A stretch of 64,000 bases of DNA from Gammaproteobacteria bacterium (GCA_017999615.1 JAGNLM010000001.1:614739-678738), one strand, 5' to 3'; counted from the first letter of the stretch, positions 50,361 through 64,000 are shown. The notes: generated by a model not told the origin, from the sequence alone. Numbers and translations: made by a program.

Positions 50361-51161
50361 TCAACAGCCCTCGTTCACGATCAATCCCCCACCGCCGGCC
50401 GGTGCCGCGGGTGCCGCCGGGGCTGCGGGAGCCGTGGGCGCAGCGGGCGCGGCCGGTGCCGCGGGCGCAATCGGGGCAGCCGGGGCCGCCGGTGCGGCGG
50501 GAGTGGGCGCCTCGAGCGGTGCGACCGGCGGGGTGAAGGCGGCCGCCGGCGCAGAGGGCAGGGCCGCAGAGGCGGGTGGCGTCGGTGCCTGTGCGGAGGC
50601 GGCTGCCTCCGCGACCCTCACGAAGCCGCTCGTGCGTGCCTGGGCCCACTCGGCGGATTCGCGGCAGGCCGCCGCGAGCCGCTTGCCGTCGCCCGGATCG
50701 CGCGCCCCGAGGGCCGTTGCCTGACCCAGGTGGGCGAGCCAACCCCGGTAGCCGCCGTCGAGCGAATAGGCCTCGATGCCGGCGAGGCGCAGCAGCACCG
50801 CAGCCTGTGCCCCGGAAGAGGCCTCCTCCCCGTACACCACGACCACGCCCCCTTTGCCAAGGCGCTCGGCGCCCGCCCGGCTCACGGCCTCCGGGAGCGG
50901 CATGTGCTCCGCGCCCCGGATGGGCCCCGCGTCGAACTCGGAGTGGGTGCGCAGGTCCACGAGCCGCAGGGCGCGATTTCCCGCGGCGACCCAGTCCGAG
51001 AGCTGCTGCGCTGTCAGCCGGTACTCCCCCTGGGCCACGCCGGCCGCGACCGCGCCGAGAGAGGGGGCGGCGGAGGCCACCGGGGCCCGCTCACAGCCGG
51101 CCAGGGGGGTGCTCGCCAGGGCCGCGGCCAGGGCTGCGATGCGGAAGGCCTTTGCGTTCAT
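50361..51161 (-). CDS. rhodanese-fold lipoprotein lacking the catalytic Cys, with (PAA)n arm and C-terminal Cys
   Basis: Lipobox LAGCE; rhodanese fold (LRLVDLRTHSEFDAGPIRGAEH...VVVVYGEEASSGAQAA) in which the active-site Cys position is Gly; C-terminal PAAPAAPAAPIAPAAP...GGGGLIVNEGC. Start set at MNAKAF. Confidence 0.65.
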   Translation of the reverse strand: MNAKAFRIAALAAALASTPLAGCERAPVASAAPSLGAVAAGVAQGEYRLTAQQLSDWVAAGNRALRLVDLRTHSEFDAGPIRGAEHMPLPEAVSRAGAERLGKGGVVVVYGEEASSGAQAAVLLRLAGIEAYSLDGGYRGWLAHLGQATALGARDPGDGKRLAAACRESAEWAQARTSGFVRVAEAAASAQAPTPPASAALPSAPAAAFTPPVAPLEAPTPAAPAAPAAPIAPAAPAAPAAPTAPAAPAAPAAPAGGGGLIVNEGC

Positions 51162-52180: not shown

Positions 52181-52723
52181 CTAGGTGAGGTAGTACACGT
52201 TGGGCTGGTTGCCGGTCTCCGGGAGCAAGACCTTCCAGGGGCGGGTCGCCAGCAGGCGGCTCACCGTGCTCGCGGGGTCGTCGAGCACGCCGAAGTGCAT
52301 GCAGTGCGTGGGGCAGGTCGCGACACACGCCGGGTCGAGTCCGCGCTCCACGCGGTGCGCGCAGAAGGTGCACTTGTCCACGTAGCCGTCGGGGCGCATC
52401 ACCAGGCGCGCGTCGTAGGGGCAGGCCGCGATGCAGGCCTTGCAGCCCGTGCACTTCTCGGGTGCCACCAGCACGATGTTGGTGTCGCCCCAGAAGTGGC
52501 TCGCGCCGGTGGGGCAGGTGTACACGCAGGTGGCATGCGAGCAGTGGTTGCAGCGCTCGCTGCGAAACTCTGTGCGGAGCTCGGGGTAACGGCCGTGGGT
52601 GGCCTCGACGACCCAGTCACGGTTCAGGCCGTCGGGGACGCGGTTCTCGGTCTTGCAGGCGACCACGCAGTCCCCGCAGCCGATGCACAGCCGGGTGTCG
52701 ATCACCATTGCGTAGCGGGTCAC
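52181..52723 (-). CDS. 4x[4Fe-4S] ferredoxin-type subunit (PsrB/DmsB-like)
   Basis: CIGCGDCVVACK, CNHCSHATCVYTCP, CTGCKACIAACP, CTFCAHRVERG...CVATCP clusters. Confidence 0.85.
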   Translation of the reverse strand: MTRYAMVIDTRLCIGCGDCVVACKTENRVPDGLNRDWVVEATHGRYPELRTEFRSERCNHCSHATCVYTCPTGASHFWGDTNIVLVAPEKCTGCKACIAACPYDARLVMRPDGYVDKCTFCAHRVERGLDPACVATCPTHCMHFGVLDDPASTVSRLLATRPWKVLLPETGNQPNVYYLT

Positions 52724-54966
52724 GCCGGCGTGTCCTCCGCCATCACGGTCACGAAATTCGCACGCATGCCCGTGCCGCCCATCAGCGGGTCGACCTTCAC
52801 CCGCGTCATCAGGCCCGTGTCGTCAGCCCCGGCCCCGCGGGCGAGGTTGAGCCCGGGCGCGGTGTGGCCGAAGCCGTGGGCGAGGTACACGCAGTCGGGG
52901 CGGATCCGCTCGGTGACGCGCACGCGCACCGGCAGGCTCACCGCGCCGTCCTGGTTCTTCAGGCGCACCCGTTGCCCGCTCGCGAGGCCGCGCGGACGGG
53001 CGGCGTCCGGGTGCACCCACAGGGTGTTCTCCGGCATCAACTGGAAGAGCAGCGGGTTGTTGCCGGTGCGCCCGAAGGTGTGGGCGGGCGCGCGGCCGTA
53101 GACGAGGCGCAGGAAGCCAGCGGGCGTCTCCTCGGGCGGGGTGTAGCGGGGCAGGGGGTCGAGCCCGGCCTTCGCGAGCTCCGTGGAATGGAGCTCGATC
53201 TTGCCCGTCGGTGTCCGGAAGCGCACCGCCTGTCCCGGCGTGAAGTACGCTGCGGTCTTGCGCGGGAAGCGCTTGAGCCCCACGCGCTGCATCTCCGCGA
53301 GGGAACTGCCGACCTGCTGCAACTGCCAGTCCAGCACCTCCGCGTAGTCTTGCCACGGGAACCAGGCGCCGAGCCCCAGGCGGTGGCCCAGCTCGCGCGC
53401 GATCCACCAGGCCGGCTTCGTCTCGTAGCGGGGGGCTAGCGCAGGCATGCGCAGGGCGAGGGAGGGCTCGCGCTCGGGGGCGTTGCGCAGCTCGTCGTAG
53501 CGCTCCAGGTAGGTGCACTCGGGCAGGACGACGTCCGCGTACCCCGTCACCTCGGCGGGCTGCACGTCCACGACGACGAAGAGGTCCAGTTTCTGCGAGG
53601 CCTCCTCGAGCTTGCCGGTGACCGCGGGGATGCTGAGTGGAAGGTTCGTGCCGTAGACGATCCAGCCCCGATAGTAAGGCCGCTCACCCACCGAGGCGTC
53701 GATGACGGCGTTGGTGACGTCGGCGTCGGCGAACGGGAACCCCCCGCGCCGGGCCTGGAGGTCCGCCGCCTTCGACTTGGGGTAGGGCGGCGTCGGGTAT
53801 TCCGGCAGGCTCACCTTCTCCGGCGCGTAGAAGCCGCCCGGCCGGCCCCAGGACCCGAGAAGCGCGTTCAGGATGGCGATGGCCCGGCTGCGCTGGGTGT
53901 CGTCCCCGTACCACGTGACGTGGCGGCCCGGGTGCACCAGGGTCGCGGGGGCGTGCCGCGCCATCTCGCGGGCGGTCTCGCGGATCACCTGCGGGTCGAT
54001 GCCCGTCTCGAGCCAGGCCCACTCGGGGGTGAACGGCTCGACGTGCCGGGTCAGCTCGGCGAGGCCGTGGCAGTAGCGCTGGACGTAGTCGCGGTCGTAG
54101 AGCCCCTCGCCCACGATGACGTGCGTCCAGGCGAGCAGGAGCGCCAGATCGGTGCCCGGGCGGATCGGCAGCCAGTACCGGGACTTCGCGGCGGCGACCG
54201 AGAACCTCGGGTCGACCGTGATGACGCTGGCACCGGCCTCGATCGCCCCGATGAAGTCCTGCACCTGCCCGTTGTGCAGGTTCTCCCCGAGGTGCGAGCC
54301 GATCAGCACGATGCAGCGCGAGCGTGCCATGTCGGTGCGCTCGGGGGAGCCGAGCAGCTCCCCGAAGGTCAGCCGGAAGCCGACGTCGCGCGGACCCCGA
54401 CACTGGGCGAAGGAGGGCGCGGCGTAGGTGTCCGCGCCATAGGCCCGCAGCAGGTGTCGGAAGAAGGCCCCGCCGGAGCCGTGGCTGAAGAGCGCGACCC
54501 GCTCGGGGCCGTGCTCCCTCGCGATCCGCTGCAGGCGCTCGGCGATGTAACCGAGCGCTTCGTCCCAGGAGACGGGCCGGAAGCGCTGCTGCCCGGGCTT
54601 CCCTTCGCGCAGCAGCGGCTGGCGCAGCCGGCTCGGGTCGTCCCAAGCCCCCGGTCCGGCGGTGCCCCGGGTACACAAGCGCCCGCCCGAGTGCGGGTCG
54701 TCCGGGTGGCCGCTGACCTTCCAGGGCCGCCCGTCGTGCACGTGGGCGTAGCCCGCGCACCTCCAGAAGCACACCTCGCAGACGGTCGGGGTGACCACCG
54801 CCTCCGAGTCCCGGGGCACGCGGGGCTCGACCCCGCAGCCGGGGAGCGCCCCCGTGGCGGCACCGAGTCCGGCGGCGCCGGATATCCGGATGAAGTCACG
54901 CCGTTTCAAGTTCTTCGGGCTCTCGAAAAAGGTCGGAGATCGATGGGGTGCCCCGCAAGGGGACAC
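52720..54966 (-). CDS. Tat-exported molybdopterin (Mo-bisPGD) oxidoreductase catalytic subunit, Psr/Phs/Sre-like
   Basis: Twin-arginine signal KRRDFIRISGAAGLGAATG; N-terminal FeS-binding CEVCFWRCAGY....C...; 748 aa, the size of polysulfide/thiosulfate reductase A subunits. Confidence 0.8.
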   Translation of the reverse strand: MSPCGAPHRSPTFFESPKNLKRRDFIRISGAAGLGAATGALPGCGVEPRVPRDSEAVVTPTVCEVCFWRCAGYAHVHDGRPWKVSGHPDDPHSGGRLCTRGTAGPGAWDDPSRLRQPLLREGKPGQQRFRPVSWDEALGYIAERLQRIAREHGPERVALFSHGSGGAFFRHLLRAYGADTYAAPSFAQCRGPRDVGFRLTFGELLGSPERTDMARSRCIVLIGSHLGENLHNGQVQDFIGAIEAGASVITVDPRFSVAAAKSRYWLPIRPGTDLALLLAWTHVIVGEGLYDRDYVQRYCHGLAELTRHVEPFTPEWAWLETGIDPQVIRETAREMARHAPATLVHPGRHVTWYGDDTQRSRAIAILNALLGSWGRPGGFYAPEKVSLPEYPTPPYPKSKAADLQARRGGFPFADADVTNAVIDASVGERPYYRGWIVYGTNLPLSIPAVTGKLEEASQKLDLFVVVDVQPAEVTGYADVVLPECTYLERYDELRNAPEREPSLALRMPALAPRYETKPAWWIARELGHRLGLGAWFPWQDYAEVLDWQLQQVGSSLAEMQRVGLKRFPRKTAAYFTPGQAVRFRTPTGKIELHSTELAKAGLDPLPRYTPPEETPAGFLRLVYGRAPAHTFGRTGNNPLLFQLMPENTLWVHPDAARPRGLASGQRVRLKNQDGAVSLPVRVRVTERIRPDCVYLAHGFGHTAPGLNLARGAGADDTGLMTRVKVDPLMGGTGMRANFVTVMAEDTPA

Positions 54967-55006
54967 CCCAAGTGTTGCACATCTTCGCCAGTCCGTCGCT
55001 CGCCCC

Positions 55007-56308
55007 TCACTCGAAGACGTAGCTGCCGTCGCCCTTGATGGTGAGCGCGTCGTTCAGGAAGCGCACCTGGTCGTAGCCGAGCTTCTTCAGGAACTGGTAC
55101 GCCATCTCGGAGCGGGATCCGTTGGTGCAATAGGCGACGATGGGACGGTCCTTCGGCAGCGACGAGGGATCCGCCTGCAGCTTGTCGAGGGGCAGGTGCG
55201 TCGAGCCCTTCAGCACACCCATCGCGGCCTCCTTGGCGTCGCGCACGTCCAGCAGCAGCGCGTTGCCGGGCGCGGCGACCACTTTCGCGAACTCCTCGGT
55301 CGACAGCGAGCCTTCCTTCGGCTTCTTCGTGTAGGCGATCTGGGTCGGGGCTTCGCCGGTGACCGTCGGCCGGCCCTCCTTCACCCACGCCTGGTAGCCG
55401 CCCCCGAGGATCGTGGCGTTCTTGTAGCGGTACTTCTTCAGCTCCGCGAACGCGGTGAGGACGTCCTCGCCGTTGTCCGTGTTGCCATAGACCACGATGG
55501 GCGCCCCCATGTCGGCCACGCCCGGGAGCCTCGCCGGTGCCTTCTCGGCGATGAATTTCTGGGTCATCGCGGGGAACGCCGCGGACTCGATCGACACCGC
55601 CCCCGGCAGGTGCCCTGCGGCCACCTCCGCCTTCGGGCGCACGTCGATGACGACGTGATGCGGGTCGAGGTGGGCCGCGACCCACTCGGGTACCGAGGTC
55701 ACCGGCTTGCCGGCCTTCTTCCACGCGGGAATGCCGGCCTGGAAGCCCTTCAGGTTGGTGTGGCCGGCCTTGGTGGCGATCTCGATGGAGCTGCCCGTGT
55801 AGGGACAGGTGGGACCACCACAATAGAAGATGACCATCGTGCCCTTGTCGGTGGGCAGCTTGTCCAGGTTGTTCGGCAGGTCCTTCCAGAAGATCTGGAT
55901 GGCGCCCGGGATGTGCCCTTCGAGGTACGGTCCCTTCGGGCGGGCGTCGACTAGCAGGAACGGGTCCTTGCCGGCGCGGATCCGCTCGAGCTCCTCCATG
56001 CTGATCTCGGCCCCGGGCGGAAGGGCGAACACCACCTTGGTGATCCGGGTGGCCGGCTGACCGGGCGTGTGCTCGACCTTGATCAGGTCCGGGGTGCCGA
56101 GCTCCTTGATGCCCGCCGCGTTGACGAACTCGGTCTGCGGACCGAAGAGCACGACCTGGGACTTTCCGCTCACCTCGACCTGGATGGTGTTGGCCTTGTT
56201 CGAGATGTCTTCGATGCGGCCCTCCACGGTGTCGGCCCGGGCGGTCGGGACCAGGGCGAGCAGGGCGGCGAGCAGGGCGGAGAGGGGCGTCGGGCGCGGG
56301 ATCGACAT
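55007..56308 (-). CDS. periplasmic multi-rhodanese protein (three rhodanese domains, the middle one Cys-less)
   Basis: Signal peptide; rhodanese 1 active loop FYCGGPTCPY, rhodanese 2 with YGNTDNGED replacing the Cys loop, rhodanese 3 YCTNGSRSEMAY; unknown N-terminal domain of about 110 aa. Confidence 0.75.
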   Translation of the reverse strand: MSIPRPTPLSALLAALLALVPTARADTVEGRIEDISNKANTIQVEVSGKSQVVLFGPQTEFVNAAGIKELGTPDLIKVEHTPGQPATRITKVVFALPPGAEISMEELERIRAGKDPFLLVDARPKGPYLEGHIPGAIQIFWKDLPNNLDKLPTDKGTMVIFYCGGPTCPYTGSSIEIATKAGHTNLKGFQAGIPAWKKAGKPVTSVPEWVAAHLDPHHVVIDVRPKAEVAAGHLPGAVSIESAAFPAMTQKFIAEKAPARLPGVADMGAPIVVYGNTDNGEDVLTAFAELKKYRYKNATILGGGYQAWVKEGRPTVTGEAPTQIAYTKKPKEGSLSTEEFAKVVAAPGNALLLDVRDAKEAAMGVLKGSTHLPLDKLQADPSSLPKDRPIVAYCTNGSRSEMAYQFLKKLGYDQVRFLNDALTIKGDGSYVFE

Positions 56309-56463
56309 GAGCGGATACCTCGCAGGTGGCTGAGTTCCCGGTGGGGCACGCTGCGCGGGGCAACACCACCAACCCGGGGGGCCCGAAGGCCCCCCTGAGT
56401 ATAGGCCCTGACGACGACCGTCCGCGATGAGTATCTGGTTGTTTTAACTAAGATTAATATCGT

Positions 56464-57768
56464 TCACTCGAGGACGTAGCTGCCATCGCCCTTGATCACC
56501 AGTGACTCGTTCAGGAAGCGGACCTTCTCGAAGCCGTTCTTCTTCAGGAAGTCGTACGCCATCTCCGAGCGAATGCCGTTGCTGCAGTAGGTGATGACGG
56601 GCTTGTCCTTCGCCAGGACGGACGGGTCGGCCTGAAGGCGGTCGATGGGGATGTGCAGCGCTCCCGGCAATTTGCCGCCTGCCACCTCCTTGTCCTCGCG
56701 CACGTCCACCAGGATCGTGTCGCCCCGGTTCTCGACCAGCTTCGCGAACTCGTCCCGGGACACCGCGCCGGGCTTCAGCTTCTTCACGTAGCTGATCTGC
56801 GTCGTGGCCGCCCCCGCCTCGATCGGCAGGCCCTGCTTCACCCATTCGGGGTAACCCCCCTTCAGGATGGCGGCGTTCTTGTACTGGTACTTCTTCAGCT
56901 CCCCGTAGGCCGTGAGCACGTCCTGCCCGTTCTCGGTGTCCCCGTACACGACGATGGGAGCCGCCATGTCGGCGACACCCGGCAACCGGGCCACCTGCTT
57001 CTCGGCGACGAACTTCTGGGTCATCGCAGGGAACTCCGCAGCCTCCATCGCCACGGCCCCTTTGACATGACCTTTGGCCGATTCGGCCTTCGCGCGCACG
57101 TCGATCACCACGGTGTTCGGGCCGAGACCGGCGGCGACCCACGAGGGGCTGGCGACGACCGGCTTGCCGGCCTTCTTCCAGGCGGGAATTCCGGCCTGGA
57201 AACCCTTCAGGTTCGTGTGGCCGGCCTTGGCCGCGATCTCGATGGACTGCCCCGTGTACGGGCAGGTCGGGCCGCCGCAGTAGAAGATGAGCATCACCCC
57301 CTTGTCGGCCGGCAGCTCGTTCAGGCGGTTCGGCAAGTCCTTCGGGAAGATGTTGATGCTGCCCGGCAGGTGCCCCGTGACATATTGCTTCTCGGGACGG
57401 GCGTCCACGAGGACGAAGGGTTCCTTGCCCGCGCGAATCGCCTCGAGCTCCTGCAGGCTCACCTCCGCTCCGGGTGGCAGGCCGAAGACCACCTTGGTGA
57501 TCCTGGTCGCGGGCTTGCCGGGGGCGTACTCGACCTCGATCAGGTCCGGCGAGCCGAGGTCCTTCACGCTGGCCGCGTTCACGTACTGCGTCTCCGGTCC
57601 GAAGAGAACCGTGACCGGCGGCTGGCCTTCGGGGGTCAGCTTGATGGTGGACCCCTTGTTGGAGATGTCGTCGATGCGGCCCTTGACGGTGTCCGCACCA
57701 GCGCCGGCCGACAGCGCGAGGCCGCCGGTCAAGACGAGGACGAGGCAGGTGATTCGCCTGTGGGACAT
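56464..57768 (-). CDS. paralog of the multi-rhodanese protein (tandem duplicate, about 70% identical by eye)
   Basis: Same architecture: FYCGGPTCPY, YGDTENGQD, YCSNGIRSEMAY; collinear with the downstream copy. Confidence 0.75.
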   Translation of the reverse strand: MSHRRITCLVLVLTGGLALSAGAGADTVKGRIDDISNKGSTIKLTPEGQPPVTVLFGPETQYVNAASVKDLGSPDLIEVEYAPGKPATRITKVVFGLPPGAEVSLQELEAIRAGKEPFVLVDARPEKQYVTGHLPGSINIFPKDLPNRLNELPADKGVMLIFYCGGPTCPYTGQSIEIAAKAGHTNLKGFQAGIPAWKKAGKPVVASPSWVAAGLGPNTVVIDVRAKAESAKGHVKGAVAMEAAEFPAMTQKFVAEKQVARLPGVADMAAPIVVYGDTENGQDVLTAYGELKKYQYKNAAILKGGYPEWVKQGLPIEAGAATTQISYVKKLKPGAVSRDEFAKLVENRGDTILVDVREDKEVAGGKLPGALHIPIDRLQADPSVLAKDKPVITYCSNGIRSEMAYDFLKKNGFEKVRFLNESLVIKGDGSYVLE

Positions 57769-57858
57769 GCTCCTATCCTCCTCTGGTTCTGCGTTTGCCT
57801 ATGGGATATTGCCTCCCTAACTATGACCCAAGTGTATTGCCTATGTAAATTTCGTTCG

Positions 57859-59835
57859 CTAGGGGAGGAGGCAGTTTGCGGTGGGGTCGGTCGGCGTGGG
57901 TGGGCAGACGAAGGCGAGCACCCCGCCGTCAGGTCGGACCTCGATGCGCAGGTCCTGCAGGCGAGAGAGCACGTCCATCCCGAGCACCGGCTTCCAGTGG
58001 CTGTCCGCGGAGGCACAGGCGAGCGCCCGCACGCCGGGCAACACGCAGGAACCGATGCGCAGTCCTTCGAGGAGGTAGTGCCTTGCCTCGGCGCCACCAC
58101 CGTGGATGAGCTCCACGTTCACTTCCCCGAGGGGCAGCGCCCGGTTGCGCCCGCACATGCGCTGCAGGTGCGGGTGGGGGAGCACGGTGACGGCCGAGCC
58201 GGTGTCGAGCAGCAACGAGAGGTCCGGGTCCTGCACGCAGCCCACGAGCCGGACCGGGACGTGCAGCAGTCCCTCGCGCAGGGTGAGGGGCACGCGCTCG
58301 GGACCGTTGCGCTCGGCAGGGGCCTCGCCGGGCGGGGGAGCGGCCGACGGAGCGGACGGGGGAGCGGACGGGGGAGCGGACGGGGTAGCGGGCGGGGGAG
58401 CGGGCGGCGTGCCGTGGCAGCTCCCGCAGGCCCGCGCCGGCCCCACCGTGTGCGGGCTGATGGGCACGAGCTCGCGCCACGACCGCACCGCCGCGGGCCC
58501 GCCAGCGGGAGGCGGGAACTCCGCGCTCATGGCCATGCCGGGGACGAAGGGTGCGATGCGCCCGTCGGGTCGCTCCCCGAGGTTCGGCACGACGGGCTGC
58601 ATCTTCCCGCGGTCCGCGAGCCAGCGCCCGGGGGTCAGCCGGCGCTCGTGATGGTCCCACTGCTCGGCGCCCGGCTCGAAGCGCACGTGGCAGCCCTCGC
58701 ACTGGGGCGCCCACTGGCTGTGGCAGGCCTCGCAGGTGAGGCGAGCGTGCTCGCGCGCGTATGGGTGGGCGGGCATCCGCGCCTTTCCGCCCTCGCGGTG
58801 GCAGTCCTCGCAGACGGGACCGGCCTTCCCCGCCAGGCCCATCACCTGGGTCCCGCGGTGACAGTCGACGCAGCGCATTCCCGCCCGGTGGTGGGCGTCG
58901 CCCGGGACGCGCTCCACCAGTCGGCCGTCGGGGAGCCGCCCCAGGCGTGACCGGTCCACCCGTGCGAGCGCGGACTCGTCCACCTCGGCGAGGCCGGAGT
59001 AGGCGAGGGCCATGCGCGTGGCGCGGGAGTGACAGCCGAAGCAGCGCTCGTCCCGCACCCGGGCGGAGAGCTCGGCGTGCGCACCCGCGGGGTAGTCGTT
59101 CAGGTGGCAGGCGAGGCACCCGCCCCCGCGGTCGCGCACCGGGTCGAGCGCGTGCCGGGCCTTGGGGTGCGCGATGTGGCAACTCGCGCAGAGCTTGCGA
59201 AAGAGCGAGTCGGCCGGTGACTGGCCGAGGCTGGCGACGCCCGCGGCCGCCGCCGGGGCGGACTTCCGATCGCCTGCGGGGGCCTCGCCAAAGGCCTGCC
59301 GGTTGCCCGTCACCATCCCGCGCAGGGTCGCCATGGGACTCGCGCGCACACCGGCCAGCTCTGCCGGGTGACAGCGCCCGCAGGTCCGCTCCGCGTTCTC
59401 CAGGTTCCCCGGGAAGGCGACGAGCCCGGCGTGCGCGAGCTCCCGTGTCGCGGCCGCGGCGTCGCCGGCGTGGCAGGCGGTGCAGTCTCCCGCAGCGAAG
59501 GCATGTCCCGCCGGGTGGCCCTGGTCGCGGACGGGGTGGCAGCCGAGGCATCCGGGGACGGCGGCTGCGGCCACCGCTTCGAGGCCGAGAAGGGCCGTGA
59601 GGGGCAGGGCGGTGAGGGCCAGGGGCGTCAGCACGAGGGGCGCCAGGGTGAGGAGCGCGAGGGCCAGGAGCGGCGCGCGCACGCTCCCGCCGGCGCGGCG
59701 GTCCGACCGGCCCGGGCTCCCCGCAAGCGGGGCCACGAATGGAGCCGCGCTTCGCCTCCCCGCAGATTTGCGCCAGATCAAGTGGCCTGCATCTTGGTCA
59801 AGGACCTGGTGGACGCACTCCGGTTCGTCACTCAT
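57859..59835 (-). CDS. undecaheme c-type cytochrome fused to a C-terminal retropepsin-like (clan AA) aspartic protease domain
   Basis: 11 CxxCH motifs; Pro/Ser/Ala linker PPAPPPATPSAPPSAPPSAPSAAPPP; C-terminal domain with LLLDTGSAV and VLGMDVL retropepsin signatures; hydrophobic low-complexity N-terminus. Alternative in-frame GTG start at 59682. Confidence 0.65.
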   Translation of the reverse strand: MSDEPECVHQVLDQDAGHLIWRKSAGRRSAAPFVAPLAGSPGRSDRRAGGSVRAPLLALALLTLAPLVLTPLALTALPLTALLGLEAVAAAAVPGCLGCHPVRDQGHPAGHAFAAGDCTACHAGDAAAATRELAHAGLVAFPGNLENAERTCGRCHPAELAGVRASPMATLRGMVTGNRQAFGEAPAGDRKSAPAAAAGVASLGQSPADSLFRKLCASCHIAHPKARHALDPVRDRGGGCLACHLNDYPAGAHAELSARVRDERCFGCHSRATRMALAYSGLAEVDESALARVDRSRLGRLPDGRLVERVPGDAHHRAGMRCVDCHRGTQVMGLAGKAGPVCEDCHREGGKARMPAHPYAREHARLTCEACHSQWAPQCEGCHVRFEPGAEQWDHHERRLTPGRWLADRGKMQPVVPNLGERPDGRIAPFVPGMAMSAEFPPPAGGPAAVRSWRELVPISPHTVGPARACGSCHGTPPAPPPATPSAPPSAPPSAPSAAPPPGEAPAERNGPERVPLTLREGLLHVPVRLVGCVQDPDLSLLLDTGSAVTVLPHPHLQRMCGRNRALPLGEVNVELIHGGGAEARHYLLEGLRIGSCVLPGVRALACASADSHWKPVLGMDVLSRLQDLRIEVRPDGGVLAFVCPPTPTDPTANCLLP

Positions 59836-59881
59836 GATTCCCTCACCGTCTTTGGGGTGATTTTCTTCAACAATAACCTGG

Positions 59882-61195
59882 ATGAATCGGATGGAGGTCG
59901 TCGTGCGCAGCCGCTCACTCGTCCTGACCCTCGCTCTCGTGCTGATCGGAGGTTTCCCGGCGCATTCGGCGTACGCCGCCCGTACGACGGCGGACGACGA
60001 GGCCGAAGAGCCGTTCCAGGGAAGGACCGTTCAGTATTATCGCCCGGAAGCTTGCAAGAAGTGCCACGAGGAAATCTACAACCAGTGGAAGTCCTCGATG
60101 CACGCGAAGAGCACGGCGCTGAAGGACCCCATCCACGAGGCGATGTACCAGATGGAGGTCGGCTCGCCGACGGAGGAGGGCGTCAAGCACAAGAAGTCTC
60201 AGACCTATCCGGTCTGCCTGCAGTGCCACGCGCCGGTCGCGGCGATGGAGAAGAAGACCAAGCTTGACGAGAAAGAGGCCTACAGCAACGGCGTCGGGTG
60301 CGTGGTGTGCCACTCCTTCGCCCACTTCAAGGGCATCAAGAAGCCGGACGGCAAGTACCAGCTCGGCCAGCTGGCCTATCAGGTCGACACCGAGCAGCTC
60401 TACGGGCCCTCCGGCATCTCCTACACCAAGAAGCGGGTGCCCAAAGGGTCTACGTGGCCGATTCCGGTCAACCACCCCCAGCCCATCAAGGGCAGCAAGG
60501 CGTCGCTCTTCAAGAGCAACGACCTCTGCATGGGATGCCACGACCAGCGCAACAACCCGAAGGAAGTGCCCCTCTGCATGACCGGCCCCGAGTACGAGAA
60601 GGGCAAGGCCTTCATCAACTGCCAGGCCTGCCACATGGCGCCGACCGAGGTGGTGAACAAGGACGGCGAGAAGGTCAAGGTGTTCGACCACACCATGGCC
60701 GGTGGGCACCACGACAAGATGATCACCCAGGGTGTCGCGTTGAGCATGGACGTGAAGCGCGAGGGGGACAATTTCAAGGTCGACATCACGCTGCGTAACC
60801 GCCTGCCGCACGCCTACCCGACCGGCGCGCCGTTCCGCAACGCCATCGTGCGGGTGGCCGCGTACGACAAGGACGGGAAGCTGCTGTGGCAGAACTACGA
60901 GAAGCACCCCTCCAAGGACGACCCCAAGGCCTTCCTCCTCCTCGCCCTCGGCAAGGACGGCAAGCCGGTGATGCCACCCGAGGCCACCGAGATCCTGAAC
61001 GACTCGCGCCTGCAGCCGGACGAGACCCGCGCGCTCGAGTACAGCTTCACCGCCGCGGGCGTCGGCATCGTGCGCACCGAGCTGCTCTACCACCTGCTGA
61101 CGCCGCCGGTGCTCGAGATGTTCGGGGACAAGCTGCCGGAAGAAGTGAAGAAGGCAAGGGTCGCGGCCTCGGCCGAGGAACGCTTCGAAAGCTGA
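59882..61195 (+). CDS. periplasmic pentaheme c-type cytochrome (NrfA/ONR/MccA-superfamily-like)
   Basis: Signal peptide ...AHSAYA; five CxxCH motifs (CKKCH, CLQCH, CVVCH, CMGCH, CQACH); N-terminal CKKCHEEIYNQWKSSMH and CQACHMAP resemble motifs of multiheme reductases. Confidence 0.7.
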   Translation: MNRMEVVVRSRSLVLTLALVLIGGFPAHSAYAARTTADDEAEEPFQGRTVQYYRPEACKKCHEEIYNQWKSSMHAKSTALKDPIHEAMYQMEVGSPTEEGVKHKKSQTYPVCLQCHAPVAAMEKKTKLDEKEAYSNGVGCVVCHSFAHFKGIKKPDGKYQLGQLAYQVDTEQLYGPSGISYTKKRVPKGSTWPIPVNHPQPIKGSKASLFKSNDLCMGCHDQRNNPKEVPLCMTGPEYEKGKAFINCQACHMAPTEVVNKDGEKVKVFDHTMAGGHHDKMITQGVALSMDVKREGDNFKVDITLRNRLPHAYPTGAPFRNAIVRVAAYDKDGKLLWQNYEKHPSKDDPKAFLLLALGKDGKPVMPPEATEILNDSRLQPDETRALEYSFTAAGVGIVRTELLYHLLTPPVLEMFGDKLPEEVKKARVAASAEERFES

Positions 61196-61305
61196 GGACC
61201 CCGGCGGCGAAACGCGGTTCCCGGGGCGGGCGGGGCGCCAGCACGCCCGCCCCGTGAGAGGCCGCAGCGGTCGGTCGAGCCCCACGGTATCGGTGGTCAG
61301 GAGGA

Positions 61306-62028
61306 TTGACGATGGTCTCGCTTGGAACATGGCTTCGGTCGCGCGCCCTGTGGAGCGGAGCCTGCCTGGTGGCCCTGCTGCCCCTCGCAGCGGTGGGTGA
61401 CGGGGCGAGCGACGAGGTGAGCGACAAGCCCGCGGTCGCCCGACCGGCGCCCCGCACCCTGGAGACGGTCCACCCGGAGGCGAACCCCGCCAAGACAGTG
61501 GACGGCCAGGCGCCGTTCGAGGAAGCCCCGCTGTTCCGGGTCGTCACCCGGAAGAAGGACTCGGACATGCACCCCTGCGGGGATTGCCACGACGAGACGC
61601 TGTCGGACTTCAAGCCGCGGGACCTGCAGCGGCCCCACGACGACTTCAAGCTCGAGCACGGGCTGCACGGCCGCGGCGAGTTCTGGTGCTTCACCTGCCA
61701 TCGCGTGAAGGGCACGGGCGGCCTGAAGACGATGGAGAGCGAGCGGCTCGGGTTCGACGACGCCTACGTCATCTGTTCCCAGTGCCACGCCCAGGAAGCC
61801 CGGGACTGGACCCACGGCGCCCACGGCAAGCGCGTGGGGGGCTGGGAGGGAGACCGCACGCTGCTCAGTTGCACCGTCTGCCACTTCCAGCACCGCCCGA
61901 AGATGGACCCGCGCAAGGCCGAGGAGCCTCCGCCGGTGCGCCGGGGCCTCCCTCGCCAGGACACCAATCCCCACGAGCCGTTGCCGGTGTGGGAGCGCCA
62001 CGGGGCCCAGGGCCCGGTGACCAAGTGA
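61306..62028 (+). CDS. periplasmic tetraheme c-type cytochrome
   Basis: Signal peptide; four CxxCH motifs (CGDCH, CFTCH, CSQCH, CTVCH); about 240 aa. Confidence 0.65.
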   Translation: MTMVSLGTWLRSRALWSGACLVALLPLAAVGDGASDEVSDKPAVARPAPRTLETVHPEANPAKTVDGQAPFEEAPLFRVVTRKKDSDMHPCGDCHDETLSDFKPRDLQRPHDDFKLEHGLHGRGEFWCFTCHRVKGTGGLKTMESERLGFDDAYVICSQCHAQEARDWTHGAHGKRVGGWEGDRTLLSCTVCHFQHRPKMDPRKAEEPPPVRRGLPRQDTNPHEPLPVWERHGAQGPVTK

Positions 62029-62082
62029 CCGGGTAACTCGGCGGCACCCAAACATCCGGATCGAACACGTACACGGACAACG

Positions 62083-63018
62083 TTGGCCATGAGCGACCAC
62101 GACCAGCACGACGACGCACCCGACCGCGCCCGCCGGCGCTTCCTGCAGCGGGTCGGTACCGTGGCAGCCGCAGCCGCGGCGGCCCCGGCGAGCGAGGGGG
62201 CCTGGGGCGGCAAGACCCTCGAGGACGCCCTGGGGGAGTTCTTCCAGGACAACTACCGGCGCATGACGCCGGAAGAGGTGAAGGAGGCGATCGGGCGCAT
62301 CGAGCGCCGGGCGAAGCGCCTGTACGGCGTGGACATCACCGTCGGCAACGAGCCGCCGCTGCCCGGGGTCGTCTTCGGGTACGCGATCAACGTCTCCAAG
62401 TGCCGCGGATACCGGGACTGCGTTCGCGCCTGCGGCGAGGAGAACAACCAGAGCCTCGACATGCAGTACATCCGGGTGCTGCAGCTCGACCAGGGCAGCC
62501 TGAACTTCGAGCAGGCCGAGCACTACTACCCGGGCGACCAGGTCCCGGTCGAGGGCAAGCACTACGTCCCGGTGCAGTGCCAGCAGTGCGACAACCCCCC
62601 GTGCGTGAAGGCCTGCCCGGTCGGCGCGACCTGGAAGGAGCCCGACGGCGTCGTGGTGGTCGACTACGACTGGTGCATCGGTTGCCGGTACTGCATGGCG
62701 GCCTGCCCTTACCAGGCCCGCGTGTTCAACTGGGGCGCGCCGGACCTGCCGGCCGAGCGCATCAACCCCAAGACCCACTACCTCGGCAACCGCCCGCGGC
62801 AGGCCGGATCGGTCGAGAAGTGCCACTTCTGCCTGCAGCGCACGCGCGTCGGCAAGCTGCCCGCCTGTCAGGAGGCCTGCCCGACCGGGGCACGGGTGTT
62901 CGGGAACCTGCTCGATCCGGAGAGCGAGATCCGCTACGTGCTCGAGCACAAGGTCGTCTTCCGGCTGAAGGAGGACGTGGGGACCGAGCCGAAATTCTGG
63001 TACTACCGGGACGTCTGA
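62083..63018 (+). CDS. Tat-exported 4x[4Fe-4S] ferredoxin-type protein (NrfC/HybA-like)
   Basis: Twin-arginine RRRFLQRVGTVAAAAAAA; Cys clusters CRGYRDCVRACGEEN, CQQCDNPPCVKACP, CIGCRYCMAACP, CHFCLQRTRVGKLPACQEACP. Confidence 0.8.
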   Translation: MAMSDHDQHDDAPDRARRRFLQRVGTVAAAAAAAPASEGAWGGKTLEDALGEFFQDNYRRMTPEEVKEAIGRIERRAKRLYGVDITVGNEPPLPGVVFGYAINVSKCRGYRDCVRACGEENNQSLDMQYIRVLQLDQGSLNFEQAEHYYPGDQVPVEGKHYVPVQCQQCDNPPCVKACPVGATWKEPDGVVVVDYDWCIGCRYCMAACPYQARVFNWGAPDLPAERINPKTHYLGNRPRQAGSVEKCHFCLQRTRVGKLPACQEACPTGARVFGNLLDPESEIRYVLEHKVVFRLKEDVGTEPKFWYYRDV

Positions 63019-63031
63019 GGAGGGGTGAGGC

Positions 63032-64000
63032 GTGGCCCTGTTTCGATTCCTTTCCAATGGAGTGCGGCATGCCTTCCGGGGCTCGCCGACCTACTGGGCG
63101 TGGCTGGGATTCCTGGTGCTGGTGATCGCGAACGGGCTGTGGGCCTATTCGCACCAGCTGTCCGAGGGGCTCATCGCCACGAACATGAGCAGCCAGGTCT
63201 CCTGGGGCTTCTACATCGCGAACTTCACCTACCTGGTGGGGGTCGCCGCGGCGGCCGTGCTGCTCGTCATTCCCGCCTACATCTTCCATCGCCAGGACGT
63301 GAAGGACGTGGTGCTGCTCGGCGACACCATGGCGGTCGCCGCGGTGATCATGGCGATCCTGTTCGTGGTGGTCGATCTGGGGCGGCCGGACCGCATCTGG
63401 CATCTGCTGCCGGGGGTTGGCATCTTCAACTTCCCGACCTCGATGCTGGCCTGGGACGTGGTGGTGCTCTCGGGCTACCTGCTGCTGAACCTCGGGATCT
63501 CGTTCTACATCGTCTACAGCCACTACCGCGGCCGCCAGCCGGTGCTGCGCTATTACTTCCCCTTCGTGCTGCTGGCGATGTTCTGGGCGATCTCCATCCA
63601 CACCGTGACGGCCTTCCTGTTCTCCGCGAACAGCGGCCGGCCGTTCTGGTCGAACCCGCTGCTCGCGCCGCGGTTCATCGCCTCTGCGTTCGCCTCGGGA
63701 CCCGCGCTCAGCATCATCGCCCTCACCATCGTGCGCAAGACGACGCGCTACCCCGTGCAGCAGAGCGTGATCGACATGCTCTCGGTGGTGATGACGGTGG
63801 CGCTCCAGATCACGCTCTTCTTCGTGGGCGCGGAGCTCTTCACCGAGTTCTACAACGAGGGGCACCACGCGGCGTCCGCGCGCTACCTGTTCCTCGGCCT
63901 GCACGGGCACGGCGTGCTGGTGCCCTGGATCTGGACGGGCATCGGGATGCTCGCGGTGGCGGTCTTCATCCTGATGGTCCACCCGCTTCGCCGGCAGCCG
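63032..64000 (+). CDS. NrfD-family integral membrane protein (partial; continues past the window end)
   Basis: Frame not listed in the ORF track because no stop occurs in the window. GAGGAGGGG ribosome-binding site then a GTG at 63032; the hand translation VALFRFLSNGVRHAFRGSPTYWAWLGFLVLV... shows many TM helices typical of NrfD/PsrC. Confidence 0.6.
   Translation, partial: MALFRFLSNGVRHAFRGSPTYWAWLGFLVLVIANGLWAYSHQLSEGLIATNMSSQVSWGFYIANFTYLVGVAAAAVLLVIPAYIFHRQDVKDVVLLGDTMAVAAVIMAILFVVVDLGRPDRIWHLLPGVGIFNFPTSMLAWDVVVLSGYLLLNLGISFYIVYSHYRGRQPVLRYYFPFVLLAMFWAISIHTVTAFLFSANSGRPFWSNPLLAPRFIASAFASGPALSIIALTIVRKTTRYPVQQSVIDMLSVVMTVALQITLFFVGAELFTEFYNEGHHAASARYLFLGLHGHGVLVPWIWTGIGMLAVAVFILMVHPLRRQP

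Follow-up and report, generated by a model that had tools for sequence, protein, structure and literature searches.

A probable quinone:cytochrome module with an LPC-family pentahaem cytochrome in a gammaproteobacterial sulfur-gene cluster

Introduction

It is known that NrfA can be served by either NrfBCD or NrfH, and that PsrABC together with Sud-type proteins makes up the classical polysulfide-respiration set. More recently, MccSep of Geobacter sulfurreducens was described as a polysulfide reductase, encoded together with ExtM, a rhodanese of 49 kDa and a complex that oxidises quinol (bioRxiv 10.1101/2025.11.18.688581; PMC5877670). Here, we analysed a window of 64,000 nucleotides from a Gammaproteobacteria bacterium (GCA_017999615.1 JAGNLM010000001.1:614739-678738). 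A preliminary description had likened the genes at its 3' end to the Nrf, Sir and Mcc systems. This parallel held for the architecture and failed for family membership, since no part of the operon belonged to the Nrf, Sir or Mcc families.

Results

Positions 59882-64000 contained the four ORFs that had been described, encoding a pentahaem cytochrome (c5), a tetrahaem cytochrome (c4), a Tat FeS protein and an NrfD-family membrane protein. The features of this part of the window were as follows.

59683..59881, no strand: probable divergent control region, with the cytochrome operon on one side and the minus-strand upstream genes on the other, inferred from gene calls
59882..61195, plus strand: pentahaem c-type cytochrome c5, LPC family; five CxxCH, five-haem N-terminal domain and Ig-like C-terminal domain
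61196..61311, plus strand: spacer between c5 and c4, containing a GC-rich hairpin GGGGCGGGCGGGG...CGCCCGCCCC and, for c4, the ribosome-binding site AGGAGG
61312..62028, plus strand: tetrahaem cytochrome c4; ATG after AGGAGG, 238 aa as in the public call, alternative TTG at 61306
62089..63018, plus strand: Tat-exported ferredoxin-like FeS subunit, DsrO-type; 309 aa, Tat motif RRRFLQ
63032..64000, plus strand, truncated at the window end: DsrP-type integral membrane subunit of the NrfD family; GTG 13 nt past the FeS stop, behind GAGGAGGGG

All four genes were confirmed, and together they make up a single operon. It was compact, its genes being separated by 116, 60 and 13 nt, and a terminator scan found no terminator between them. 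The hairpin in the 116-nt spacer folded into a local 11-bp stem with a z-score against shuffles that was not significant, and the scan detected no T-tract terminator there. When the sequence was extended past 64000 with identical wastewater-metagenome contigs, as had been advised, the NrfD-like gene was complete (419 aa, L001:10944-12203) and would end near 64291. After a further 277 nt, these public contigs encoded a PEP-CTERM protein and then polysaccharide-export genes; therefore, the operon ended with the NrfD-like gene. On the 5' side, the extent of the control region presumed that the neighbouring multihaem gene started near 59682, as in its 607-aa public call. The sigma-70 consensus was not found within 59683..59881, and the region was thus placed by inference. 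The order c5-c4-FeS-NrfD was repeated in 26 species-level genomes, which is far beyond chance, and the hosts were sulfur-oxidising Gammaproteobacteria. The concern that the FeS and NrfD genes might belong to a different operon was not borne out, as both were tightly linked to the c4 gene here and in distant taxa.

The pentahaem cytochrome had 437 aa when translated from 59882, with other starts at 59891 (434 aa) and 59903 (430 aa), both of which were called in public contigs. It carried a Sec-type signal peptide and CxxCH motifs at C58, C112, C140, C216 and C247. The sequences C58KKCHEEIYNQWKSSMH74 and C247QACHMAP were present as quoted earlier, and CxxCK and CX15CH motifs were absent from c5. 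Pfam returned Cytochrome_C554 (E 5.6e-17); the suggested comparison with Cytochrom_C552 gave no match, in agreement with the view that c5 was not a textbook NrfA. The profile matched PDB 5ZE8 with E 7.9e-129 and 43% identity, and the same structure was the top Foldseek match (43% identity, TM 0.66/0.74). The family of c5 is that of the low-potential penta-haem cytochrome c552 (LPC) of Thermochromatium tepidum.

C232, H85 and PTGAPFR were kept in 199/199 sequences, a count that is partly circular because 80 loci had been retrieved via the PTGAPFRN pattern. The loop P313-TGAPFR-N320 comprised eight consecutive invariant residues, and C232 was the lone invariant Cys. In the alignment with MccSep homologues, C232 corresponded to MccSep C239 and the invariant A316 to Sec325, the essential selenocysteine, and the position of MccSep R83 was an invariant Pro in the c5 family. 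The pentahaem c5 is a remote, selenocysteine-less relative of MccSep/ExtKL and not of the octahaem MccA/SirA. C232 may also serve as the distal ligand of haem 2, giving His/Cys ligation. Paralogues of c5 in Thiocapsa and Thiodiazotropha adjoined genes for a NapC/NirT-type tetrahaem quinol dehydrogenase and another multihaem cytochrome; thus, this pentahaem family was repeatedly wired to quinol-dehydrogenase modules, which extended the parallel to NrfA and its two alternative partners.

The tetrahaem gene was confirmed as such, although its product was probably 238 aa long rather than 240 aa, the ATG at 61312 after AGGAGG being a likelier start than the TTG at 61306. A hydrophobic N-terminal segment, either an anchor or a signal, was followed by a linker and the haem part, with four CxxCH and four invariant distal His (H111, H121, H173, H196), so that all four haems are probably bis-His. 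The c4 family had 1060 representatives. At the loci examined, the c4 gene was always followed by the FeS and NrfD genes, and this was again so for homologues of only 30-34% identity, where the NrfD protein scored on DsrP.

These observations bear on the possibility that the operon, with a catalytic cytochrome of an unusual kind, encodes an NrfABCD-like nitrite/hydroxylamine reductase or a sulfite reductase like Sir/MccACD. The nrfABCD gene order was indeed mirrored, and the sole similarity of c4 to PDB entries was to the haem 4-5 region of NrfA, weak and local (E 2.5e-6). The five-haem core of MccSep was reported to superimpose on those of other multihaem enzymes, but MccSep was inactive with nitrite, sulfite, thiosulfate and tetrathionate (bioRxiv 10.1101/2025.11.18.688581). 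Moreover, nothing matched Cytochrom_C552 or the NrfA, NrfB, NrfC or NrfD equivalogs, c5 had five haems rather than eight and neither CX15CH nor CxxCK, and the neighbours were sulfur-transfer and Psr genes instead of nitrogen genes. Family searches largely refuted membership in Nrf, Sir or Mcc, and we considered this option very improbable; in our reading, the operon is not a nitrite or sulfite reductase. The earlier decision to leave the substrate open was sound.

The FeS protein was Tat-exported as proposed, but the assignment of four [4Fe-4S] clusters did not hold. It had 15 invariant Cys in four groups, of which the first was C-x5-C-x3-C and the other three were canonical; therefore, one cluster is probably [3Fe-4S] or has a non-Cys ligand. 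Its NCBIfam scores were 192.6 bits for DsrO (cut-off 200), 148.6 for QrcC and 119.7 for NrfC (cut-off 377.6), and its PDB relatives were ArrB, PsrB and ActB. The last protein was NrfD-like as stated (Pfam NrfD, E 1.6e-48), with about 10 hydrophobic segments by hydropathy and ActC of alternative complex III as its nearest solved relative. At full length it scored 404.2 bits against DsrP (cut-off 350) and 35.6 against NrfD TIGR03148 (cut-off 347.6). By family scores, the two proteins are DsrO/DsrP-type, not NrfC/NrfD-type.

Some NCBI annotations go further and treat such proteins as genuine DsrO and DsrP of DsrMKJOP; one orthologue is named DsrP (P0189), and the DsrP equivalog cut-off was indeed passed. 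However, no dsrM, dsrK, dsrJ or other dsr genes were found in the 10 kb flanking each side, either at this locus or in 26 other genomes, DsrO fell below its cut-off, the partner was a tetrahaem, probably bis-His, rather than trihaem DsrJ, and the same c4-FeS-NrfD trio also stood alone among housekeeping genes. DsrMKJOP identity was contradicted by this context and seemed scarcely credible. The tetrahaem, DsrO-like and DsrP-like genes constitute a widespread three-gene module without a name, found in distant bacteria. Very likely, it functions as a quinone:cytochrome module with the pentahaem as its partner.

The genes upstream of the operon were divergent from it.

57859..59835, minus strand: multihaem cytochrome with 11 CxxCH; N-terminal part remotely ExtM-like, C-terminal retropepsin-like (clan AA) domain
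56464..57768, minus strand: periplasmic triple-rhodanese protein; three Pfam Rhodanese domains, E 8.4e-45, active-site loop CSNGIRS in domain 3
55007..56308, minus strand: second triple-rhodanese protein (paralogue); active-site loop CTNGSRS
52720..54909, minus strand: Tat molybdopterin oxidoreductase, PsrA/PhsA-like; Pfam Molybdopterin, Molydop_binding, Molybdop_Fe4S4, TAT signal; 729 aa (public calls)
52181..52723, minus strand: PsrB-like four-cluster FeS subunit, 180 aa
51170..52180, minus strand: PsrC/NrfD-like membrane anchor, 8-TMH type, 336 aa
50361..51161, minus strand: 266-aa lipoprotein, possible cluster member; one rhodanese-homology domain without catalytic Cys

The lipoprotein had an Ala/Pro-rich tail ending in ...NEGC. 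The PsrA/PhsA-like protein scored 473.5 bits against NCBIfam PhsA, below the cut-off of 694. Among 21 related genomes, the operon continued into triple-rhodanese and psrABC-like genes in 16; a rhodanese homologue followed the NrfD gene on the same strand in 17/21 and PsrA did so in 16/21. The rhodanese and PsrABC-like neighbours spoke for zero-valent sulfur or polysulfide and against nitrite or hydroxylamine. Psr was missing within 5 kb in 5/21 genomes, and modules without such neighbours existed; thus, c4-FeS-NrfD was not sulfur-specific in itself.

Discussion

In the mechanism that we propose, the DsrP-type 10-helix protein would exchange electrons and protons with quinone/quinol, and electrons would pass from it through the Tat DsrO-type FeS protein to the membrane-tethered bis-His tetrahaem. 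This module, possibly assembled as a complex, would partner the periplasmic LPC-family pentahaem in a periplasm-facing respiratory unit tied to the quinone pool. The unit would act on zero-valent sulfur or polysulfide together with the PsrABC-like molybdoenzyme and the neighbouring triple-rhodanese proteins as periplasmic sulfur carriers. The preferred flow would run from quinol through c4 and the O- and P-type subunits to the pentahaem and a sulfur acceptor, and the role may be anaerobic S0/polysulfide reduction by a sulfur-oxidising gammaproteobacterium. We gave this explanation as a whole, a quinone-coupled periplasmic polysulfide/S0 redox unit that is preferably reductive, about an even chance. 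A sulfur compound is fairly probable as the substrate, and reductive electron flow was chosen tentatively.

The sulfur reading was favoured by the kinship with MccSep, the conservation of C232 and PTGAPFR, the synteny with Psr and rhodanese genes and the paralogues linked to quinol dehydrogenases. On the other hand, the U325A and U325C variants of MccSep lost most activity, so a pentahaem with Ala316 cannot share the MccSep mechanism, and the replacement of R83 by Pro also counted against our explanation.

The missing catalytic Sec/Cys would suit a simpler arrangement, in which the pentahaem is a non-catalytic shuttle and c4-FeS-NrfD a quinol dehydrogenase delivering electrons to the ExtM-like cytochrome, PsrAB or an extracellular acceptor. 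LPC was reportedly isolated as a soluble cytochrome without known activity. An ExtM-like multihaem gene related to the 11-haem one adjoined c5 in 9/21 genomes, and relatives were likened to nanowire-forming cytochromes (PMC11976967). However, the invariant lone Cys and eight invariant loop residues at the site of the MccSep active centre exceeded the needs of a shuttle, and no outer-membrane porin or conduit gene was found in the cluster. We considered the shuttle quite improbable. Because the haem-2 Cys was kept and PTGAPFRN, the counterpart of the Sec loop, was invariant, a sulfur-handling terminal cytochrome appears more likely than a plain shuttle.

The direction of flow could also be the opposite, with sulfide, polysulfide, thiosulfate or rhodanese-bound persulfide as the electron donor of the pentahaem, which would pass the electrons through c4 and the FeS protein to the quinone pool. 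Here, the pentahaem would be a low-potential cytochrome with a His/Cys haem, as in TsdA or SoxAX, and the DsrP-like subunit a Qrc-like, possibly electrogenic, quinone reductase. An oxidative role was favoured a priori by the sulfur-oxidising hosts, and the FeS and NrfD subunits were nearest to DsrOP and next to QrcCD. Two quinone modules in one cluster, PsrC and the DsrP-like protein, fitted a loop with one module reducing the quinone pool and the other oxidising it; such a donor/acceptor pair fitted as well as two parallel reductases. Against it, both the pentahaem's nearest characterised relative and the Psr/rhodanese partners belonged to reductive systems, and sulfur oxidisers of this kind normally possess SQR, FCC, Sox and rDsr for oxidation already. 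Also on the oxidative side, Qrc acts as a cytochrome c:menaquinone reductase (PMC6303296, PMC8076601), the 5ZE8 paper is cited in PMC11976967 with a title that names a low-potential cytochrome, and a passage of the MccSep preprint mentions that oxidative enzymes have His/Cys haems as well (bioRxiv 10.1101/2025.11.18.688581). In a thiotrophic gammaproteobacterial symbiont, however, psr/phs genes were upregulated under anoxic and sulfidic conditions (PMC8269255). The oxidative direction was rated as rather unlikely.

Comparison with known systems

NrfABCD of the E. coli type had the same order and kinds of subunits, with alternative NapC/NirT-type partners elsewhere, but no subunit was orthologous, the CxxCK active-site haem was absent and the context was sulfur rather than nitrogen. 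The DsrJOP half of DsrMKJOP was similar in the membrane subunit, which here passed the DsrP model, in the FeS protein nearest to DsrO and in having a periplasmic c-type cytochrome as partner; the His/Cys haem of DsrJ would be shared if our reading of the Cys is right. However, there was no DsrM/DsrK and so no cytoplasmic DsrC-facing half, trihaem DsrJ was replaced by unrelated tetrahaem and pentahaem cytochromes, and the locus was not dsr.

Cbc4 (CbcSTU) of Geobacter, NhcABC(D), QrcABCD and alternative complex III had the similar build of a quinone:cytochrome c oxidoreductase. As in Cbc4, with c4 and CbcS likened by description, this included a tetrahaem that is anchored in the membrane and has a flexible linker and bis-His ligation of its four haems, together with an FeS protein with several clusters and an integral membrane subunit without cofactors; among solved structures, ActB and ActC were nearest to the FeS and NrfD subunits. 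In contrast, CbcS was described as NapC/NirT-like, and Cbc4 lacked a link to sulfur genes.

PsrABC with Sud (Wolinella) and PhsABC resembled the neighbouring genes and not the four-gene operon: a Tat molybdoenzyme (PhsA below the equivalog cut-off), a four-cluster FeS protein, an 8-TMH NrfD-type anchor and periplasmic rhodaneses, which differed from Sud in being three-domain proteins of 433-434 aa.

MccSep/ExtKL of G. sulfurreducens (PDB 9WT8/9WT9) shared the five-haem cap, Ig-like stem, collinear haem motifs, distal Cys of haem 2 (C239) and HxxP(D/T)G loop, and a neighbourhood with genes for a rhodanese of ~49 kDa, a multihaem cytochrome of the ExtM type and a membrane complex that oxidises quinol. 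Nevertheless, the similarity was remote (profile E 1e-5), with Sec325 replaced by Ala and R83 by Pro. The Geobacter quinol module was Rieske/cytochrome b (ExtOPQ) rather than NrfD-type, and relative to the ext cluster the present one lacked the ExtI porin and had an additional Mo-dependent Psr.

Finally, LPC of T. tepidum was homologous to c5 over the full length and agreed with it in five CxxCH haems, an Ig-like domain at the C-terminus, the lone Cys and the PTGAPFRN loop, and its host was also a sulfur-oxidising gammaproteobacterium. The 5ZE8-type proteins formed a separate subfamily with a ~25-residue insertion and adjoined a PF13447 multihaem gene and a NapC/NirT gene, whereas the c5 type was found in a c4-DsrO-like-DsrP-like operon with rhodanese and Psr.

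Organization of the operon

Four closely spaced genes were identified by ORF analysis on the plus strand of the window between 59882 and 64000:

59882-61195, plus strand: pentahaem cytochrome (c5), 437 aa, with five CxxCH motifs behind a Sec signal peptide
61312-62028, plus strand: tetrahaem cytochrome (c4), 238/240 aa, with four CxxCH motifs
62089-63018, plus strand: FeS protein, 309 aa, carrying a twin-arginine motif and Cys groups of the ferredoxin type
63032 (GTG) to beyond the window end, plus strand: NrfD-family membrane protein, with its start inside the window

The gaps between successive genes were 116, 60 and 13 nt. No terminator-like site was found between the four genes by the terminator scan, and no sigma-70 consensus by the promoter scan. 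An exact-sequence look-up with the FeS protein, which was indexed in 420 collection blocks, returned an identical locus in many wastewater metagenome contigs. These contigs provided the sequence past position 64000, whose inspection had been proposed in the preliminary description, and in them the NrfD-like gene was complete (419 aa). It was followed, 277 nt downstream, by a gene for a PEP-CTERM protein and then by polysaccharide-export genes, and thus the operon consisted of four genes. The 247-aa gene located 3' of NrfD was considered as a fifth subunit and rejected, as it encoded the PEP-CTERM protein heading the exopolysaccharide locus. According to the ORFs and motifs, the four-gene layout described previously was correct apart from the FeS cluster count: the proposed set of four [4Fe-4S] clusters was insecure since the FeS protein had 15 invariant Cys residues rather than 16, and their first group was a non-canonical C-x5-C-x3-C.

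Several additional features of the locus were observed. Directly 3' of the operon, the PEP-CTERM protein was PepA-like and flocculation-associated, and its gene was followed by Poly_export/SLBB, chain-length-determinant-like ATPase and AAA genes (L001:12480-20930, on a wastewater contig carrying the operon). This region was an exopolysaccharide/floc-formation locus of the kind typical for activated-sludge bacteria. The spacer between c5 and c4 (61196-61311, plus strand) contained a strong local GC hairpin with an 11-bp stem that was not significant against shuffled sequences, the DNA being 70% GC. This hairpin may be a processing or stability element setting the ratio of the soluble to the membrane subunits. 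The GC content was 63% in the pentahaem gene and 65-67% in the rhodanese genes upstream, against 70-77% in their surroundings (window 60000-60999 and 55000-57999).

The pentahaem cytochrome and its family

The preliminary description had held that the c5 was not a textbook NrfA, and this was confirmed: its five haem sites were all CxxCH, the CxxCK active-site haem with the Lys ligand was absent, and there was no NrfA model among its NCBIfam matches. The proposed HMM search against Cytochrom_C552 (PF02335) gave no match at E<=0.01 in the Pfam scan, and the best Pfam match was Cytochrome_C554 (E 5.6e-17). With respect to MccA and SirA, the protein had five CxxCH motifs, not eight haems, it lacked the extended CX15-17CH motif, and MccA was not among the PDB sequence matches of its profile. 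The best NCBIfam match was the '(seleno)protein ExtKL' model, which covered the N-terminal part and remained below threshold (78.9 bits vs a cut-off of 250).

The c5 profile, built from 32 members, matched one solved structure over its full length (hmmsearch, E 7.9e-129, profile positions 17-422). This was 5ZE8, the low-potential penta-haem cytochrome c552 (LPC) of Thermochromatium tepidum. The same structure was recovered by Foldseek (E 8.6e-39, 43% identity, TM 0.66/0.74) with an AlphaFold2 model that was used only for this confirmation, its mean pLDDT being 63.7 with a poorly modelled haem domain; the C-terminal beta-domain was modelled at pLDDT 80-97. Thus, the c5 was a member of the LPC family, consisting of a five-haem domain and an Ig-like domain and homologous to 5ZE8 over the full length.

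A database search returned 865 relatives, all of them unnamed or labelled 'cytochrome c family protein'. Among species-representative genomes, 251 carriers were found, and almost all were sulfur-oxidising Gammaproteobacteria (Chromatiaceae, Sedimenticolaceae/Thiodiazotropha, Achromatium and Thiotrichales), with the addition of a Magnetococcus. Within the family, 5ZE8 and the Thiocapsa-type paralogues could be recognised by a shared insertion that was missing from the window-type c5. Their genomic contexts also differed: the window type was found with c4, FeS and NrfD genes, and the Thiocapsa-type paralogues adjoined divergently oriented genes for a NapC/NirT tetrahaem and a PF13447 multihaem cytochrome. 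Therefore, the pentahaem family was tied to two unrelated kinds of quinol dehydrogenase. The window c5 was a new subfamily member, placed apart from the 5ZE8 type, of a structurally known family. A third pentahaem group (type III) was orphan, with no neighbouring cytochromes at its loci.

The arrangement of the 5ZE8-type paralogues was constant. At L068:5618-7785 (minus strand) and about 30 other loci (L048-L086), in Thiocapsa, Halochromatium, Lamprocystis and Candidatus Thiodiazotropha, the pentahaem gene was always divergent from a pair encoding a 512-aa PF13447 'seven times multi-haem' cytochrome and the NapC/NirT tetrahaem. This arrangement was a second conserved module.

Comparison with the polysulfide reductase MccSep

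The second PDB match of the c5 profile was MccSep (9WT8/9WT9), which shared with it five collinear CxxCH motifs and the Ig-like C-terminal domain (alignment A2 and PDB profile matches). MccSep corresponds to ExtKL, a selenoprotein of Geobacter sulfurreducens, and was shown to be a polysulfide reductase (bioRxiv 10.1101/2025.11.18.688581, a 2025 preprint). Haem 2 forms the active site of MccSep; its ligands are His122 and Cys239, and Sec325 extends into the site from the Ig-like domain. Activity was almost abolished in the U325A, U325C and C239H variants, and a conserved, activity-essential Sec or Cys at position 325 was proposed as the criterion of the family (bioRxiv 10.1101/2025.11.18.688581).

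When concatenated MccSep fragments were used as a query, only truncated proteins were returned. Two of these homologue fragments (P0126 and P0165) were collinear with the published MccSep numbering and fixed the alignment of Cys239 and Sec325, which corresponded to C232 and A316 of the window protein. MccSep R83 aligned with an invariant Pro of the c5 family, two residues before the invariant His85. Five CxxCH haem sites, C232, H85 and the loop P313-TGAPFR-319, including Ala at position 316, were conserved in 199/199 family sequences, a count that was partly motif-selected since 80 genomic loci had been retrieved by a pattern containing PTGAPFRN, the motif-independent part being only the 120 database proteins, all more than 50% identical to the query.

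Judged from these aligned residues, the c5 was not a member of the MccSep family by the criterion of its authors, and the MccSep mechanism cannot apply to it unchanged since there was neither Sec nor Cys at position 316. It probably retained a Cys-ligated haem, with C232 as the putative ligand, and by the alignment it had a strongly constrained loop where MccSep carries its catalytic residue.

The tetrahaem, FeS and membrane protein genes formed a separate module

The complete NrfD-like protein scored 404.2 bits with the DsrP equivalog of NCBIfam (cut-off 350) and only 35.6 bits with NrfD (TIGR03148, cut-off 347.6). The FeS protein scored 192.6 bits with DsrO (just under the cut-off of 200), 148.6 bits with QrcC and 119.7 bits with NrfC (TIGR03149, cut-off 377.6). 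The closest solved relatives of the two proteins were ActC and ActB of alternative complex III, together with PsrB and ArrB. Thus, membership in the Nrf, Sir or Mcc families was dismissed for every part, given the missing PF02335 match, the NrfC and NrfD scores below cut-off and the lack of an MccA match. For the cytochromes, the HMM scores and the haem motifs spoke against an identity as NrfA, NrfB, MccA or SirA, and these were rejected.

The c4 had an N-terminal hydrophobic segment and four invariant His residues outside the haem motifs, and its sequence was consistent with bis-His ligation of the haems. Its sole similarity to a solved structure was local and concerned the part of NrfA around haems 4-5 (E 2.5e-6). 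An exhaustive search placed the c4 in a family of 1060 cluster representatives (about a thousand 50%-identity clusters). In an entry annotated 'bacterium', a JGI metagenome contig and a deltaproteobacterial MAG, each with a distant family member (30-34% identity), the tetrahaem gene directly preceded an FeS gene (312-320 aa) and an NrfD gene (397-432 aa). The NrfD proteins of these loci passed the DsrP cut-off, and their FeS proteins scored best on DsrO, just below its cut-off. Since the trio recurred beside distant c4 members, the tetrahaem, DsrO-like and DsrP-like genes constituted an autonomous and widespread three-gene module, for which we found no name in the NrfD-family review (PMC8076601) or in other literature searched.

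Most c4 orthologues (alignment A3; L009, L018, L021, L024-L038) carried an acidic low-complexity linker with a conserved D-W-D-W/WDW motif between the signal or anchor and the haem domain; the window c4 lacked this linker. The DsrP equivalog cut-off was passed by NrfD-like proteins located outside dsr operons (L001:10944-12203, the complete gene on a wastewater contig, and orthologues such as P0189). As a result, some public records of the orthologues were named 'DsrMKJOP subunit DsrP', others 'NrfD/PsrC family'. Since the trio is sometimes annotated automatically in this way, metagenome surveys of the sulfur cycle can report dsr genes that are not there.

Gene neighbourhood and synteny

Upstream of the operon, the following genes were located on the opposite strand:

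57859-59835, minus strand: 11-haem cytochrome, partly similar to ExtM, with a C-terminal retropepsin-like domain
upstream of the operon, minus strand: two periplasmic triple-rhodanese proteins, the active-site loops being of the form CxNGxRS
upstream of the operon, minus strand: PsrA/PhsA-like molybdoenzyme with PsrB-like and PsrC-like genes
50361-51161, minus strand: lipoprotein containing a rhodanese-like domain, its gene immediately following that of the PsrC-like protein

The genes beyond this set were unrelated. In related genomes, these functions formed one co-directional array, [ExtM-like] c5-c4-FeS-NrfD-rhodanese-PsrA-PsrB-PsrC. The complete c5-c4-FeS-NrfD order was present at 26 species-level loci. 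Among the 21 loci with at least 3 kb of downstream sequence, a same-strand rhodanese gene was found at 17 and PsrA at 16, and the ExtM-like gene adjoined c5 at nine. The cluster with its rhodanese/Psr combination appears to be undescribed, as we found no account of it in the literature searched.

Further features were observed in two of the upstream genes. The 11-haem cytochrome was fused to a clan AA aspartic protease-type domain (PF13975/TIGR02281), an odd combination, and in most related loci the haem part alone was kept; its true start was probably near 59682, giving 607 aa. The lipoprotein (266 aa) had a LAGC lipobox, one rhodanese-homology domain without the catalytic Cys, and a long Ala/Pro-rich tail ending in GGGGLIVNEGC, and there was no Pfam match on record for it. 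In having a Cys at the C-terminal end of a flexible arm, the lipoprotein is reminiscent of the sulfur carrier SoxY.

Proposed function and significance

From the gene content, family relationships, residue conservation and synteny, we infer a possible mechanism. The DsrP-like subunit would exchange electrons with the quinone pool, and the FeS protein and the tethered tetrahaem would carry them to or from the soluble pentahaem, where the putative Cys-ligated haem 2 would handle sulfur species. The rhodaneses and PsrABC may use polysulfide or zero-valent sulfur from the same pool.

We favoured the reductive direction, namely anaerobic reduction of S0 or polysulfide by a sulfur oxidiser, since the only characterised relative of the c5 is a polysulfide reductase and since Psr with rhodanese makes up the classical polysulfide-respiration set. 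Moreover, a thiotrophic symbiont induced its psr/phs genes when conditions were anoxic and sulfidic (PMC8269255). Electrons might also flow in the oxidative direction, with sulfide, polysulfide or thiosulfate as their source and the system working as a Qrc-like cytochrome:quinone reductase; we considered this only moderately less likely than sulfur reduction.

A more far-reaching proposal, which we regard as speculative and rather unlikely, is that the LPC-type pentahaem cytochromes cleave or form S-S bonds independently of selenium. They would then be a new catalytic branch within the MccSep superfamily and would work by means of the PTGAPFRN loop and a haem 2 ligated by Cys. Combined with the trio, the triple rhodaneses and PsrABC, they would form the machinery for respiration or mobilisation of zero-valent sulfur in sulfur-storing Gammaproteobacteria under anoxia. 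If true, this would be the long-sought machinery by which these bacteria respire or mobilise their own zero-valent sulfur, and it would explain what the cytochrome c552 of T. tepidum does. The structure of this cytochrome has been known since 2018.

To our knowledge, no enzyme has been assigned to the reduction of stored sulfur by sulfur oxidisers, and the window cluster is a candidate for this role. Such organisms, for example Beggiatoa, reduce their stored sulfur in the dark or under anoxia (PMC3253548). The conserved rhodanese/Psr link and the retained active-site Cys of MccSep provide a concrete and testable sulfur-chemistry hypothesis for the 5ZE8 family. Although the finding is unsurprising in principle, it opens both the role of LPC and the respiration of sulfur by bacteria that store it to testing. 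Since the FeS protein was so frequently indexed in the sequence collection, the carrier organism being common in wastewater metagenomes, the system may also be relevant to the way sulfide and sulfur are turned over in treatment plants.

Relation to known systems

A genuine DsrMKJOP complex was rejected on genomic context: no dsrM, dsrK or dsrJ gene was found within 10 kb in the window or in related loci. While the trihaem DsrJ belongs to DsrMKJOP, the partner here was a tetrahaem cytochrome that gave no DsrJ match. The association of the pentahaem family with two kinds of quinol dehydrogenase parallels that of NrfA, which is likewise served by NrfBCD and NrfH. In the Geobacter Cbc4 complex (CbcSTU), a membrane subunit and an FeS protein are described together with a tetrahaem that is anchored, has a linker and binds its haems by bis-His ligation (bioRxiv 10.1101/2025.04.14.648717). 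Here too, an anchored, putatively bis-His tetrahaem, an FeS protein and an integral membrane subunit were encoded together, a likeness in architecture to the published description of CbcSTU.

The ext cluster of Geobacter encodes a 49-kDa rhodanese, ExtKL/MccSep, ExtM and a Rieske/cytochrome b complex (PMC5877670). The window cluster was the gammaproteobacterial counterpart of this system, but it used a different quinone module, had no selenocysteine and contained an additional Mo-dependent Psr.
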